Virus record (IMG/VR): IMGVR_UViG_2877953467_000005
Length of the DNA: 4,152 nt
Strand: one strand, 5' to 3'
Origin: a virus
Lineage: Duplodnaviria > Heunggongvirae > Uroviricota > Caudoviricetes
The position numbers were made by a program, and so were the translations under genes. Positions 1 through 4,152 of the stretch are shown one piece after another. Each line of letters opens with the position of its first letter. Position 1 is the stretch's first letter. The notes below the pieces were generated by a model. The model did not search any database. It was not told the origin of the DNA and worked only from the letters and a program-made list of their open reading frames with translations.

Positions 1-981
1 TTATAACGTCACTCCGCCTTTTAGTGGATTCAGAGCGACGGCATTTTGCAGATAGTCAGGCGCAAGGTGCGCATAGGCCATCGTCTGCTGAATGCTCGCA
101 TGTCCCAGAATCTGTTGCAGTGCGATTATATTGCCCCCATTCATCATGAAATGGCTTGCGAATGTATGCCGCAGGATGTGGGTTGCCTGATTGGGTGGTA
201 TATCAGGTTTCACTCTGCGTAAAATCCCGCAAAATTTCTCATAATCAACTTTGAATAATTTGGCGCTGGCCTCCTCTTTAACTTTTTTCTCCAGTTCCTC
301 AGAAATCGGCACGGTTCGCTTTTTACCGTTTTTGGTTTTCAGGAAGGTAACCCTGCAATTTGTAATCTGTGCTGGTTTTAGCGTGGCAACTTCCGTCCAT
401 CTTCCTCCGGTGCTCAGACATAAAAGCGCGACAAGTAAGTCATCACCAGCCAAAACATTTAACAGTTTTTCGATTTCTGCTTTTTCCAGGAACGTCATTT
501 CAGGGTTGGCCTCCGCCAGTGGCGGCAGTCCGTGAATTGGGTGTTGCCCGGAAAATTCATCCAATTGAATTAATTTTGTGAACATGCCGGATAATCGGTA
601 CATGTCACGGTTTATCGTTGCGGCACTGATACCATCACGTAGTCGCATGGAACGATAATCCATCAAAGCCCTTTTGCTCATCCTGCTCACTGGTATATCA
701 CCTATGCCGCTGATGGTTTTGAGTAGATGATTAAACTCTTTTGTTCCATGCTCGTGGTTTTGCCCGTGATATTTCCACCAGATGTCCAGCAACTCACTCA
801 AAGTCCGGCGGTCTGCTCGCTGGCCTCCCCATTCTTTCTGACTGGCATTGGCGATTGTGTATCGCTCAAATGCTAGTGCTTCAGCTTTTCTTTCGAATTT
901 CCTGCGGATGCGTTTTCCGTCGCGACCGCGAGGTCTAATGTCCACTTCATAGCGACCATCATCGAGCTTCTTAATTGCCAT
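1..981 (-). CDS. int: Phage tyrosine integrase (P2 Int-like), site-specific recombinase
   Basis: Minus-strand ORF 1..1011 (336 aa); stop codon is revcomp of 1..3. The internal Met at 979..981 begins MAIKKLDDGRYEVDIRP, which I recall as the P2 Int N-terminus, and is preceded by GGAGGG (revcomp of 989..994) with a 7-nt spacer, so 981 is the likelier start than 1011. C-terminal tyrosine-recombinase motifs are visible: HILRHTFASH and LGHASIQQTMAYAHL (catalytic Tyr). Confidence 0.92.
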   Translation of the reverse strand: MAIKKLDDGRYEVDIRPRGRDGKRIRRKFERKAEALAFERYTIANASQKEWGGQRADRRTLSELLDIWWKYHGQNHEHGTKEFNHLLKTISGIGDIPVSRMSKRALMDYRSMRLRDGISAATINRDMYRLSGMFTKLIQLDEFSGQHPIHGLPPLAEANPEMTFLEKAEIEKLLNVLAGDDLLVALLCLSTGGRWTEVATLKPAQITNCRVTFLKTKNGKKRTVPISEELEKKVKEEASAKLFKVDYEKFCGILRRVKPDIPPNQATHILRHTFASHFMMNGGNIIALQQILGHASIQQTMAYAHLAPDYLQNAVALNPLKGGVTL

Positions 982-1050
982 AAGAAAGCCCTCCGGCGCT
1001 GTATTCACCATCTTGGTAGCAAATGGTGAAAATGTAATCTTTATATAGAG

Positions 1051-1344
1051 TTAGCCAATCCTTTTCGCGGAGTGGTTGGACTCTGTTGACTCTGGCCCAA
1101 TGTGCGCGAGAGCCGGTGCGATTTGTCCTGCGTCCGGCGCGGTTTTATCTGTCATAAGCCATAGAGCATATTTTTGGAATGTGGGATGCATAGTGATTTT
1201 TAGCAAAGCTGTGCCACCGGGTTCAAAGTTTCCTCCTTCATATTTTTTAAGTGTGCTTAGCGGTAACTCTATGATTTCACAGAATTTTGATTGGCTTAGC
1301 CCTTCAGCCTCACGCAAGGCCTTAATCTTTTCGCTTAATTTCAT
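1051..1344 (-). CDS. C: Immunity repressor, P2 C-family, HTH DNA-binding protein
   Basis: 97-aa minus-strand ORF divergent from cox. An HTH-like segment (LSQSKFCEIIELPLSTLKKYE) and the C-terminal stretch FQKYALWLMT...APDAGQIAPALAH resemble P2 repressor C as I recall it. Size (~99 aa) and position between int and cox match P2 organisation. No strong SD upstream of the start. Confidence 0.85.
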   Translation of the reverse strand: MKLSEKIKALREAEGLSQSKFCEIIELPLSTLKKYEGGNFEPGGTALLKITMHPTFQKYALWLMTDKTAPDAGQIAPALAHIGPESTESNHSAKRIG

Positions 1345-1403
1345 TTGACATGGTGCCTATATAGGGACTAAATCCCCTCAAAACTGGAACCTATATAGGT
1401 TCC
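1345..1403. promoter_or_regulatory. Early promoter/operator switch region: consensus -35 TTGACA (1345..1350, + strand) plus two copies of palindromic CCTATATAGG (1356..1365 and 1390..1399)
   Basis: TTGACA lies immediately next to the C start codon and is oriented toward cox. A weak -10 candidate CTAAAT/TAAATC sits at about 1368..1374 (17-18 nt spacer). The 10-bp self-complementary core CCTATATAGG occurs twice, 34 bp centre to centre; the second copy is inside a perfect 18-bp palindrome GGAACCTATATAGGTTCC (1386..1403). Placement across the -35/-10 and just downstream matches the operator layout known for P2 Pe. Exact promoter elements are inferred. Confidence 0.55.
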
Positions 1404-1465
1404 ATTGATTTGAGAATAAACCAGCATCTAAACGGTTTTGAGTGGTTTAGAAAGGGCTGGATCCT

Positions 1466-1753
1466 ATGAGGGTACCATATATGGACGCTGAAAATTATGT
1501 GATTCAGTATCCGCTTGATGCGGTTCATGTGGATAAATTTGCTGATTTATTAGGGAAGCCAAAGACAGCCGTCAGTGAAATGGTGAAGGCAAATAAATTA
1601 CCAATTATTGAATTGCGTGATCCTTGCAAACCGAAGGCTCGTGCCGGTGAAAAATGGGTTTTCATTCCTGAGTTTAATCGCGCTGTACGTGAGGCGTTTT
1701 ATAACCGACCGGTTGAACAGCGTGATGCATGGCTTTTGTGGATGGGGTTGTGA
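1466..1753 (+). CDS. cox: Cox-like excisionase / early-operon regulator
   Basis: 95-aa ORF. The C-terminal half (AGEKWVFIPEFN...FYNRPVEQRDAWLLWMGL) resembles P2 Cox as recalled (AGEYWVYLPAWN...RPKEIRDGWLMWLGL). First gene rightward of the switch region. Alternative start at 1481 (MDAENYV) has a GAGGG SD at 1469..1473; the 1466 start has AAGGG at 1452..1456. Confidence 0.8.
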   Translation: MRVPYMDAENYVIQYPLDAVHVDKFADLLGKPKTAVSEMVKANKLPIIELRDPCKPKARAGEKWVFIPEFNRAVREAFYNRPVEQRDAWLLWMGL

Positions 1754-1755
1754 TT

Positions 1756-1926
1756 ATGAATGAGCCGCGTTGTATTGCTCAGTTATTGCGTAACGAAAGC
1801 CCCAGGGCGATTGACTTCACCATCACCCACGGTAAGGGGCGTAAGGGAATCATTATCCGCACCAAAAAACAGAGTCCGTTAAAAAAGGCTCTGACCTTTC
1901 TGAAAAGCCGGAGGGTATGGAAATGA
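1756..1926 (+). CDS. Small basic hypothetical protein (position of P2 orf78)
   Basis: ORF track gives 1729..1926. The ATG at 1756 lies 2 nt after the cox stop (TGA 1751..1753), and its own stop (TGA 1924..1926) overlaps the B start in an ATGA arrangement, consistent with translational coupling. The protein is K/R-rich (GKGRKGIIIRTKKQSPLKKALTFLKSRR). No family recognised. Confidence 0.5.
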   Translation: MNEPRCIAQLLRNESPRAIDFTITHGKGRKGIIIRTKKQSPLKKALTFLKSRRVWK

Positions 1927-2423
1927 CAGTGATGACGCTCAATCTCGTTGAAAAACAGCCAGCAGCTATGCGCCGGATAATTGGCAAGCATCTTGCCGTC
2001 CCTCGCTGGCAGGATACATGTGATTATTATAATCAGATGATGGAGCGCGAACGGCTAACGGTTTGCTTTCATGCACAGTTAAAACAGCGTCACGCAACGA
2101 TGCGTTTTGAAGAAATGAACGACGTCGAACGTGAACGACTGGTTTGTGCAATTGATGAATTGCGTGGCGCATTCTCAAAACGCCGTCAGGTCGGCGCAAG
2201 TGAGTATGCATATATTAGTTTTTTAACAGTCAGTCAGCGTCGTACTTTATTTATGCATGCGGGATTGACAGAAAAAGAATTCAATCAGCCGTACTGGCGA
2301 ATTAATGAAGAATCATGTTACTGGCGTGATGCTTTATTCCGTGCATTACGTGAATTATTCAGTCTGTTTGAGTATGCACCGACAATTCTGACGTCGGTAA
2401 AACCAGAGCAATATCTGCATTAA
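1923..2423 (+). CDS. B: Replication protein B (P2 gpB-like, helicase-loader-type)
   Basis: ORF 1917..2423. The start at 1923 (MTVMTLNLVEKQ...) has GGAGGG at 1910..1915 with a 7-nt spacer and gives 166 aa, the size I recall for P2 B. The sequence closely resembles P2 B from memory. Stop TAA at 2421..2423. Confidence 0.85.
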   Translation: MTVMTLNLVEKQPAAMRRIIGKHLAVPRWQDTCDYYNQMMERERLTVCFHAQLKQRHATMRFEEMNDVERERLVCAIDELRGAFSKRRQVGASEYAYISFLTVSQRRTLFMHAGLTEKEFNQPYWRINEESCYWRDALFRALRELFSLFEYAPTILTSVKPEQYLH

Positions 2424-2486
2424 ATAATTAACCAGAGTTTTTAACGCACTTAATCGTGCGGGGCTTCTTTTTGCCTGGAGAAAGTC

Positions 2487-2711
2487 ATGCATACAGTTTC
2501 TGAAAATCAGTGCGGTAAATACGCATTACTGCTGCAACAGGCCAGAACCGAAGCACAGGCCGACGCTGCGACGCGCTTTTCTTCTCATCTTGACGCCATG
2601 ATTCGCCACATCACAAAGGCGGAGTTATCCCGCGTGGAGATAGTTGAGCTGCTCAGTCAGGAGTCGGAAAAATTTCACAATATCGGATTGTCTCGCGGGG
2701 AGGTGCTTTGA
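2487..2711 (+). CDS. Hypothetical early protein (P2 orf80-like)
   Basis: 74-aa ORF with GGAG SD at 2477..2480 and a 6-nt spacer. Its stop TGA (2709..2711) overlaps the next ATG (TGATG). Position and size match P2 orf80. Confidence 0.7.
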
Positions 2712-3013
2712 TGTCCTGTTCTCGTTCGGTTGTATTACTGAATAACGCCTTAAAAATCGCCGTTATGAAAAATGGTGATTTGTCTCTTATTCAACTTGGT
2801 ATTGATAAAGAGAAGCGCGAAATAACTGAATCTGTTATCGCGATTTATCAGAGTGAATTAAACCTCCTGTCTGATGTGGTCAATTTACTTGTTAAACGCG
2901 CTGTATTCCACAAGCAAATTTCCTCAGTGGATGAACTGACAAAATTAACGACAGAACTCGCCAGTTATTGCGCTGATGAATTTAAGAAGCTGAACGACAA
3001 AAGGAGCTGGTAA
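2711..3013 (+). CDS. Hypothetical early protein (P2 orf81-like)
   Basis: ORF track starts at TTG 2708; ATG 2711 is preferred because GGAGG at 2699..2703 gives a 7-nt spacer. 100 aa. Stop TAA (3011..3013) overlaps the next ATG (TAATG). Confidence 0.7.
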   Translation: MSCSRSVVLLNNALKIAVMKNGDLSLIQLGIDKEKREITESVIAIYQSELNLLSDVVNLLVKRAVFHKQISSVDELTKLTTELASYCADEFKKLNDKRSW

Positions 3014-3237
3014 TGCCGGACAACGTGGATTTTATTCAGGAACAACAGGCTGAATTACTGGAGCGCCAGATTAACGCGGCAAGGGTAAAACATTGCGGTG
3101 TTTCTGCGCTGGTTTGCGAAGAGTGTGACGCGCCAATACCTGCTGCCCGTCGTGCGGCTTATCCGTCAGCCACGCGTTGTGTTTCCTGTCAGTCAGTCTT
3201 TGAAGCAAAAAACAAACATTACCGGAGAACGGCATGA
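3013..3237 (+). CDS. TraR/DksA-family C4 zinc-finger protein (P2 orf82-like)
   Basis: 74 aa with AAGGAG SD at 3001..3006. Contains CEEC-x17-CVSC, the CxxC-x17-CxxC signature of the TraR/DksA zinc finger. Stop TGA overlaps the next ATG (ATGA at 3234..3237). Confidence 0.8.
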   Translation: MPDNVDFIQEQQAELLERQINAARVKHCGVSALVCEECDAPIPAARRAAYPSATRCVSCQSVFEAKNKHYRRTA

Positions 3238-3361
3238 GTATTCGTATTGAAATTGGCGAACGTTATGTCGTTACCAGTGACAGCTTTCAGTTTATTCTCC
3301 ACGAGAAAAAGAGAGCGGAAAGCGGTAAAAACGCCGGTCAGGAATGGCTGGCGGTGGTTGG
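3234..3361 (+). CDS. Hypothetical early protein (P2 orf83-like), 3' end lost in assembly gap
   Basis: ATG 3234 with GGAG at 3223..3226. The N-terminal 42 aa (MSIRIEIGERYVVTSDSFQFILHEKKRAESGKNAGQEWLAVV) run straight into the N run. The ORF-track continuation to 3530 reads through the gap in an arbitrary frame and is not trusted. Confidence 0.6.
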
Positions 3362-3372
3362 NNNNNNNNNNN
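3362..3372. other. Run of 11 N: assembly or scaffold gap of unknown true length
   Basis: Literal n characters in the sequence. GC content and gene content differ on either side. Confidence 0.95.
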
Positions 3373-3510
3373 AACTTTTTGGGGTCAGTACATCGAGGGG
3401 CTTTCTGTTTTGGGGAATATTCTTCATTAAAAGTAGTGGATCACGTTTAATAAACTATGTTTATCATATACTTAAAAGTCAATCTTTAAAGTTGGACAGG
3501 TTGGTGGAAA

Positions 3511-4152
3511 ATGGAAAAAGTTATAATTGAGCTTGATAATCGTTGGGAGTTAGCTGATTTCGCGGTCTTAACGAAAGAGTATTTGCAGCTATATGGTTTT
3601 TTTTATGGCCTAAAAGGAGGATCAAGAGGATATTCAACAATGCCTTGGGAGGGTGGGCACAGTGTGGTGAACTTTTTTAGAGGGGCTTACAGTGCGACTC
3701 CACCAGATTTACGTCCTGTAGTGAAAAAAATTCAGTATGCCTCTCCTGGCTTTATTGAATTGTCTGCTCTTATTGATATCTCTTGGCAGATTGCTGAGTT
3801 AGTTACTGCTGTTGGTGGAAGTATTCTGGCTGCCAACAAAGTTTACGATCAGGTGATGCGTACATATCGACAAAGAGAATGGGCAAAGTTGAAATCAGAG
3901 AAGCTGCGTATACAGAATCAAATTAAAGAGATTGAACTTGTTTCTGACGCAGTTAAATCACTTGAATCTGTGATGGCACTTAGTGAAGAACAACGTAAAA
4001 ACTTGGTTCAACTATCGGGGGCAGATGAACTGGTTCAGTTAAAGATACTTTTGGCTGTTTACCGACGGTTATCTCCTCTTGTTGAGTTGCAAAACAGCGG
4101 GAAAGCTAATTTTTCTGCTGGGAAAAATAAAAATTTAAAAGCGTCCGATTAA
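3511..4152 (+). CDS. Hypothetical protein, 213 aa, no recognisable family; candidate accessory or cargo gene (possible superinfection-exclusion or anti-phage function)
   Basis: Complete ORF from ATG 3511 to TAA 4150..4152, coherent over 213 codons. The region is AT-rich (about 37% GC in two 60-nt samples versus about 52% in B). Weak SD GGTGG at 3503..3507. Predicted N-terminal globular part, a central amphipathic hydrophobic stretch (FIELSALIDISWQIAELVTAVGGSILAA) and a K/E-rich C-terminal region that looks helical or coiled-coil. No Walker A, nuclease or other catalytic motif recognised. Confidence 0.6.
   Translation: MEKVIIELDNRWELADFAVLTKEYLQLYGFFYGLKGGSRGYSTMPWEGGHSVVNFFRGAYSATPPDLRPVVKKIQYASPGFIELSALIDISWQIAELVTAVGGSILAANKVYDQVMRTYRQREWAKLKSEKLRIQNQIKEIELVSDAVKSLESVMALSEEQRKNLVQLSGADELVQLKILLAVYRRLSPLVELQNSGKANFSAGKNKNLKASD

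Follow-up and report, generated by a model that had tools for sequence, protein, structure and literature searches.

How does the C repressor of a P2-like phage read its operators? In its crystal structure, P2 C forms a symmetric dimer that is spaced for two consecutive major grooves and superimposes on P22 c2 and the 434 repressor (PMC2995052). [quoted passage not shown] The locus analyzed here, a stretch of 4,152 nucleotides referred to as the window, bears directly on this problem, as its immunity class supplies fully symmetric sites together with natural operator mutants. On the grounds of that symmetry, the initial annotation had suggested that the C/Cox pair of the window differs from that of P2 both in its mode of recognition and in its immunity specificity. 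Are the symmetric sites operators for C, and does their symmetry call for a new way of binding DNA?

The locus and its prophage

The window comprises the early control region (int-C-cox-B) of a prophage that is P2-like (Peduovirus) and belongs to the L-413C immunity type. The genes that matter here are the following:

1..1011, minus strand: int, a tyrosine integrase of the P2/WPhi type (Pfam Int_N and Phage_integrase), downstream of C in the lysogenic operon
1051..1344, minus strand: C, the immunity repressor, 97 aa with an N-terminal HTH (open reading frame; Pfam HTH_3; PHROG 147, 6e-39)
1481..1753 (alternative annotated start 1466), plus strand: cox, encoding the Cox excisionase and Pc repressor (Pfam Phage_Cox, 1e-23; PHROG 272, 2e-47)

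The gene order, int-C-cox-orf78-B with orf80-83 after B, is that of L-413C and P2. Gene content and the homology of C and Cox agree with the initial assignment of a P2-type C/Cox switch region: a P2 C homologue of about 100 aa with an N-terminal HTH is present, a Cox homologue heads the opposing early operon, and int lies downstream of C. The sole relative of C in the PDB is P2 C (2XCJ/2L49; E=2e-21), and L-413C gpC has the very same sequence as the C protein of the window. Between the Cox proteins of the window and WPhi the identity is 82%, and their alignment begins at the ATG at 1481. Most records place the start of Cox at 1481 (90 aa), L-413C and 569R9 at 1466 (95 aa); the former position is favoured by the alignment with WPhi Cox and by a Shine-Dalgarno sequence, GAGGG.

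The C-cox region is 99-99.7% identical to those of Yersinia phage L-413C, KC618326 (a record titled 'Escherichia phage P2' that differs from canonical P2), P24B2, FSL SP-004, R18C and others. It is present in 420 of 5426 complete E. coli genomes, in a single copy each, and in E. coli genomes the prophage adjoins cpxP. Over positions 1-3361 the window matches the E. coli M217 prophage at 100% identity. Phages have been placed in the same immunity class when their C proteins are at least 95% identical (PMC3448106). The class of the window is probably among the published classes I-VII (Karlsson et al. 2006), because PMC3448106 lists L-413C among its phages and not among the 'new' classes. This class merits attention: it is found in about 8% of complete E. 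coli genomes, in the phage L-413C, which is used in plague diagnosis, and in the 'virulent' phage R18C.

Two identical self-complementary sites around the early promoter

The early promoter Pe and the repeats around it are arranged as follows:

1345..1350, plus strand: -35 hexamer TTGACA of Pe, abutting the C start codon; the CAT-TTGACA junction recurs in WPhi and P2, whose Pe has been annotated or mapped
1351..1370, unstranded: candidate operator O1, TGGTGCCTATATAGGGACTA, a 20-bp near-palindrome (8 of 10 pairs) with its core at 1356-1365; positional homologue of WPhi O1
1369..1374, plus strand: -10 hexamer TAAATC of Pe; TAAATT in almost all relatives
1385..1404, unstranded: candidate operator O2, TGGAACCTATATAGGTTCCA, a perfect 20-bp palindrome with its core at 1390-1399; positional homologue of WPhi O2

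As the initial annotation had recognized, two identical self-complementary 10-bp cores, CCTATATAGG, stand 34 bp apart from start to start (1356-1365 and 1390-1399), and no further copy with up to two mismatches was found across the window. Copy 1 falls between the -35 and -10 hexamers and copy 2 shortly after the expected transcription start, so that the two flank the -10 region, likewise as claimed. The second copy had been placed in a perfect 18-bp palindrome; this palindrome is indeed perfect, but it spans 20 bp. The direct-repeat unit measures 15 nt (TGGTGCCTATATAGG and TGGAACCTATATAGG), and the four half-sites of O1 and O2 yield the consensus TGGnnCCTAT, read inward from both ends. Because the cores are palindromic, O2 is a 20-bp palindrome and O1 pairs at eight of ten positions, the direct and the inverted readings of the sites coincide. 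The usual description as non-palindromic direct repeats does not apply to this operator region, both cores being perfect 10-bp palindromes.

Could such an arrangement arise by chance? We estimated expectations from dinucleotide-preserving shuffles of the window. Lone 10-bp palindromes are unremarkable by this measure (about 4 expected per window, 3 present). Two identical 10-bp palindromes at most 60 bp apart occurred in 0.3% of shuffles, a palindrome of at least 18 bp in 1.4%, and an exact 10-mer repeat within the 121-bp C-cox spacer in 0.4%. The repeats are non-random. A text search of the literature for CCTATATAGG returned only eukaryotic CArG-box and unrelated papers.

A promoter scanner called Pe in the class-mate KC618326 (TTGACA-18-TAAATT) and in WPhi (TTGACA-17-TATATT) and made no call in the window; the spacer is thus 18 bp in this class versus 17 bp in WPhi. 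Position 1374 is C in the window, in one further relative (L010) and in a few E. coli genomes (M217, EC31, ECKH-257), and T in the remaining class members; the change from T to C removes the near-invariant last T of the -10 hexamer. In the M217 prophage, which is identical to the window over positions 1-3361, gene A is cut by an IS21-like element. Given the altered -10 hexamer, the switch may no longer fire, and this change together with the interruption of gene A in M217 raises the possibility that the lineage of the window may be a locked or defective prophage. Hexamers of the opposing promoter Pc were also sought by consensus in the C-cox spacer, and none was convincing.

A known layout with another sequence

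Mapped operators have been described for only three P2-like classes, P2, P2 Hy dis and WPhi (PMC1904268). The sites are 8 bp long in both P2 and P2 Hy dis, with spacings of 22 and 26 bp, respectively, and those of Hy dis lie around the -35 hexamer; WPhi has half-sites of 10 bp, spaced by 34 bp from centre to centre on either side of the -10 hexamer (PMC1904268). In the WPhi sequence (AJ245959), O1 and O2 are TATTGGTGAC at 1771-1780 and 1805-1814, and the first of them begins 7 nt after the TTGACA that abuts the C start, compared with 6 nt for the first core of the window. As in WPhi, two 10-bp repeats with a 34-bp spacing flank the Pe -10 region, C has 97 aa, and the chromosomal attachment region is near cpxP. 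Since TTGACA is placed in the same way and the spacing is the same, the operator architecture of the window is the known WPhi layout in another sequence. The site itself is different: CCTATATAGG and TATTGGTGAC are unrelated, and the half-sites of WPhi are not self-complementary, whereas here each core is palindromic within a 20-bp dyad.

Likeness to P2 is more general. It extends to the C/Cox pair with its homologous repressor, to a couple of half-sites on either side of the Pe -10 hexamer and presumably to the convergent arrangement of Pe and Pc. The initial annotation described the P2 operators as short non-palindromic direct repeats, and this agrees with the annotation of P2 (NC_001895), in which GTTTAGAT occurs twice, 22 bp apart, as 8-bp direct repeats flanking the -10 hexamer. 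The window differs from P2 in site length, symmetry and spacing, and nothing resembling CCTATATAGG with up to two mismatches was found in the P2 early region, so that P2 does not share this operator sequence. From a wider perspective, dyad-symmetric sites of 14-20 bp for an HTH dimer are also found in the operators of lambda, 434 and P22 c2. Unlike the lambdoid operators, the region analyzed here has just two sites, 34 bp apart, which are not shared with a lytic repressor, and unlike the lambdoid repressors C is a single-domain protein of 97 aa.

Which immunity, then, might the class confer? With C sharing just 43% identity with P2 C and 56% with WPhi C, one would naturally expect a distinct specificity and, with it, heteroimmunity towards both phages, and this part of the initial proposal is supported. 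Membership in the P2 class is rejected by the lack of GTTTAGAT 22 bp apart and by an identity of C well short of the 95% cutoff; the WPhi class (class III) is rejected by the same cutoff and by unrelated spacer and sites. P2 Hy dis immunity had been suspected from the 43% identity of C, but this is also the figure for P2 and WPhi (PMC1904268), and the geometry of the Hy dis operator differs.

Changes in the probable operators of lytic isolates

Natural variation within the class offers a second line of evidence. We compared 33 class sequences over 921 bp, all of which, except for HQ103, encode the same intact 97-aa C. Both 20-bp sites are kept in all prophage and temperate records, the sole exceptions being single changes at the outermost positions, 1351 and 1404. 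R18C has been reported as virulent (PMC6823313), and L-413C is a clear-plaque mutant of L-413 (PMC3448106). In R18C (L022), exactly two private changes are found across the 921 bp, and they strike one core each: G1364T the first and C1390T the second. L-413C (L001) has four, of which C1356A alters core 1, T1373C the -10 hexamer and C1402A the right arm of the O2 palindrome, beyond its 10-bp core; the fourth is C1632T. Five of these six private substitutions fall within 1351-1404, that is, within 54 of 921 bp (binomial P=4e-6), and the clustering is also significant relative to the other sequences (Fisher test P=9e-4). All four in-site changes are located at consensus positions of a half-site, none at the 'nn' positions. 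HQ103, which is lytic, has a 7-bp deletion inside C (window 1179-1185).

In WPhi, repression in vivo is lost only if both half-sites are damaged (PMC1904268, PMC1904263), and the pattern of one hit per site in R18C and L-413C is what such a requirement would produce. We infer that the changes at both sites likely explain the lytic or clear-plaque behaviour of the two phages. No operator explanation for that behaviour was found in the literature examined. If operator changes do cause lysis by L-413C and R18C, this bears on the diagnostic or therapeutic use of such phages. As a test of core conservation, the 420 E. coli prophage copies are uninformative, since the whole 135 bp varies at no more than three positions.

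A probable bipartite operator for C

What do these sites do? We consider it likely, with a probability of roughly three in four, that they form a bipartite operator (O1 and O2) through which the 97-aa C protein represses the rightward early promoter Pe. The positions relative to Pe, the WPhi layout and the variants of the lytic isolates all point in this direction. The sites also track C and not Cox: Cox is closely similar to its WPhi counterpart, while the sites of the two phages are unrelated.

We envision that each 20-bp site, with its TGGnnCCTAT halves facing inward, is bound by one symmetric C dimer that places one HTH on each half-site. Two dimers centred 34 bp apart would be separated by about three turns and would thus lie on roughly one face of the DNA. 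They would bind cooperatively and bend the DNA, as has been shown for P2 and WPhi C, and bound C would then occlude the -35/-10 spacer and the start site. In the window class both halves of each site would be at or near the consensus, whereas in the sister class described below this would hold for the left half only, and internal symmetry might simply add an extra specific half-site within the usual binding mode of the family. In addition, O2 overlaps a dyad that recurs throughout the classes and probably folds into a stem-loop where the early transcript begins, which would help to account for the perfect and long palindrome at O2. A 10-bp palindromic core is too short for two HTHs, and the 20-bp reading leans on flanks that vary at positions 6-7. 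The locus is no new kind of system: it is very probably a WPhi-type operator of unlike sequence in an uncharacterised but very common immunity class.

Site symmetry in related classes

Does the symmetry of the sites imply a different mode of recognition, as the initial annotation had proposed? Of its two suggestions, a different specificity is in keeping with the divergence of C, but a different mode sits poorly with the WPhi geometry and with the symmetric dimer of P2 C. A further argument against it comes from a sister class, which we identified among the C-cox spacers of 80 IMG/VR relatives (about 50 distinct spacers). The C proteins of this class are 85% (L026) and 72% (L031) identical to that of the window and have the same helix 3, STLKKYE. 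Their sites are TGGAACCTATATGT, present twice 33 bp apart, with the same left half-site as here, TGGAACCTAT. The right halves are non-symmetric (6-8 of 10 pairs), so that the sites read as plain direct repeats. With helix 3 and the left half shared and the right halves degenerate, the same HTH evidently works on asymmetric sites. The sister class shows symmetry to be apparently dispensable for this HTH, and the symmetry of the window looks like an optional second consensus half-site, not like a new mode of binding.

A survey of orientation in about 25 immunity classes extends this picture. Internally symmetric sites are also found in three other classes (L028, L042, L065). The two sites are direct repeats of each other in the window class, in L026, L046 and L065, and in WPhi and P2. 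In other classes the two sites, of about 17 bp, are inverted relative to each other (15 of 16 positions in L033 and L066, 14 of 16 in L069, L072 and L083; L052 also belongs here). Site spacing is the same in direct and inverted classes, about 33-37 bp. Classes with symmetric sites and classes with inverted sites would both fit the binding of one dimer per site with free orientation.

Dyad symmetry at site 1 is raised across 23 class representatives at exactly the centre seen in the window (4.7 of 10 pairs, compared with about 2.4 at other centres) and includes some covarying pairs, part of it being owed to conserved promoter-linked bases. A simple code relating helix 3 to the site was considered and rejected, as helix 3 STLKNYE pairs with several different sites. 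Could these features be general? It is possible, if doubtful, that for P2-like C proteins at large each site is a pseudo-palindrome of about 20 bp for one symmetric dimer, that the mutual orientation of the sites is free and that O2 is set in a conserved hairpin at the 5' terminus. If this were true, the window class would represent the limiting case in which both sites are truly palindromic, and thus an ideal natural substrate for asking how a C dimer reads DNA. The hairpin at O2 would then couple repression to the fate of the early mRNA.

A family-wide dyad around the second site

The palindrome of O2 is the centre of a longer element:

1377..1414, unstranded: extended dyad CTCAAA..TGGAACCTATATAGGTTCCA..TTTGAG, the local form of a family-wide dyad; predicted RNA hairpin on either strand

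Its predicted fold (1376-1415) is stable, at -16.4 kcal/mol (z=-6.3) for the plus strand and -17.9 kcal/mol (z=-5.0) for the minus strand. Nearly all classes have a dyad around site 2, typically AAAAGGT-N12-ACCTTTT and often extended to 9-11 pairs, and its presence is independent of immunity class. In an alignment of 39 sequences (the 60 nt that follow the Pe -10 hexamer in loci L005-L084; A3, columns 11-23 with 36-46), 81% of cells are paired compared with 70% in shuffles (0 of 500 as high), compensatory double changes occupy 44 cells compared with 16.7 expected, and slid controls are at most 57% paired. The inner arms of the window, TGGA/TCCA, share columns with the AGGT/ACCT of the family, and CTCAAA/TTTGAG represents the outer stem. 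In P2, a separate dyad, TTTAGTGC-N10-GCACTAAA, is located downstream of O2 (L002, 1933-1958) and is uncoupled from the operator. The WPhi Pe transcript starts just 5' of AAAAGG (PMC1904263). The dyad begins at about +1 of the Pe transcript. It is plausible that it forms a 5'-terminal stem-loop of the early RNA, and the symmetry of O2 may in part be explained by it.

How far might this element account for the symmetry? In the most serious alternative, which is credible although we would not put our weight on it, the symmetry arises secondarily from a stem-loop in RNA or DNA, and C binds as an asymmetric reader of direct repeats; the two sites might still be operators, with which this explanation is compatible. 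The stem would have extended inward to take in the O2 core, the hairpin would act on the early (or Pc) transcript by stabilising or attenuating it, and the O1 core would be palindromic too because O1 must carry the recognition sequence of O2. Conservation of the dyad with compensatory changes, the strength of the predicted fold and the separate position of the P2 dyad are all consistent with such an origin. So is the sister class, which retains the direct repeat without the symmetry, and so are stems of 9-11 bp around a non-symmetric 12-nt centre, which are too long for one dimer. The position of the WPhi start fits as well, and a WPhi construct cut right after O2, and thus without the 3' arm, downstream phage sequence and the annotated Pc, yielded about 100-fold more reporter (PMC1904263), but this effect could equally come from the loss of convergent Pc. 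G-U-type pairs, which might have assigned the hairpin to the Pe or the Pc RNA, have no strand bias (17 versus 15). Site 1 lies outside the dyad, yet its symmetry is raised across classes as well. Of the two private changes in R18C, C1390T would produce a mild U-G wobble, and the other is located in O1, outside any hairpin. In L-413C, C1402A could act via the hairpin just as well as via C, and the same may be said of the symmetry of O2.

A terminator is a further alternative. Under this improbable reading, the 20-bp palindrome and the adjoining TTGATTTG constitute an intrinsic terminator or attenuator between convergent Pe and Pc. A consensus scanner does flag the plus strand, with an 8-bp stem, four G-C pairs, a 4-nt loop and the tail TTGATTTGAG. 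However, the element would sit some 5 nt downstream of the early transcription start and also within the C mRNA leader, and both transcripts have to read through it; its T-tract is weak. Elsewhere in the family the T-run belongs to the stem, so that only 3-4 non-A/T pairs are left and the conserved element is not a canonical terminator. Termination would also leave copy 1 and the O1 mutations unexplained. Binding of Cox, which also acts in the P2 spacer (PMC3448106; P2 annotation), or of a host protein such as IHF, or mere chance repetition, is very unlikely, given that the WPhi spacer holds nothing related to the repeats despite the similarity of the Cox proteins, that the Cox-proximal downstream spacer is common to classes with different repeats, and that chance is excluded at the level of about 0.3-0.4% and by the pattern of mutations.

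Other elements of the spacer and the distal window

The spacer has further features close to cox. A third match to the 20-bp consensus TGGNNCCTATATAGGNNCCA, with three mismatches (0.01 expected per window), is TGGATCCTATGAGGGTACCA at 1458-1477; it overlaps the Cox ribosome-binding region, and a single A-to-C difference from P37 betters its right arm. We considered it as a third operator, O3, and rejected it: most of it is retained in classes whose operators differ, and it is probably not class-specific. A third perfect 10-bp palindrome, CCATATATGG, is found at 1475-1484, across the probable Cox start at ATG 1481; it has the CC..GG ends of the operator core, with its AT phase opposite. A 15-nt direct repeat is formed by TTTTGATTGGCTTAG inside C (1285-1299) and TTTTGAGTGGTTTAG in the Cox-proximal spacer (1436-1450). 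The spacer stretch CCAGC...TAGAAAGGGCTGGATC is common to many classes with different C operators; it may contain Cox-binding or Pc elements and represent the joint at which C and Cox modules recombine.

Towards its distal end the window departs from the prophage. A run of 11 N at 3362-3372 breaks orf83, and gene A is absent from the window. Positions 3373-4152 have a lower G+C content (38-41%) and in M217 are not contiguous with the prophage. This part contains an open reading frame of 213 aa (3511-4152) that gave no match in Pfam and PHROG searches and matches the anti-phage defence protein PD-T4-10_B (PADLOC, 1.3e-34).
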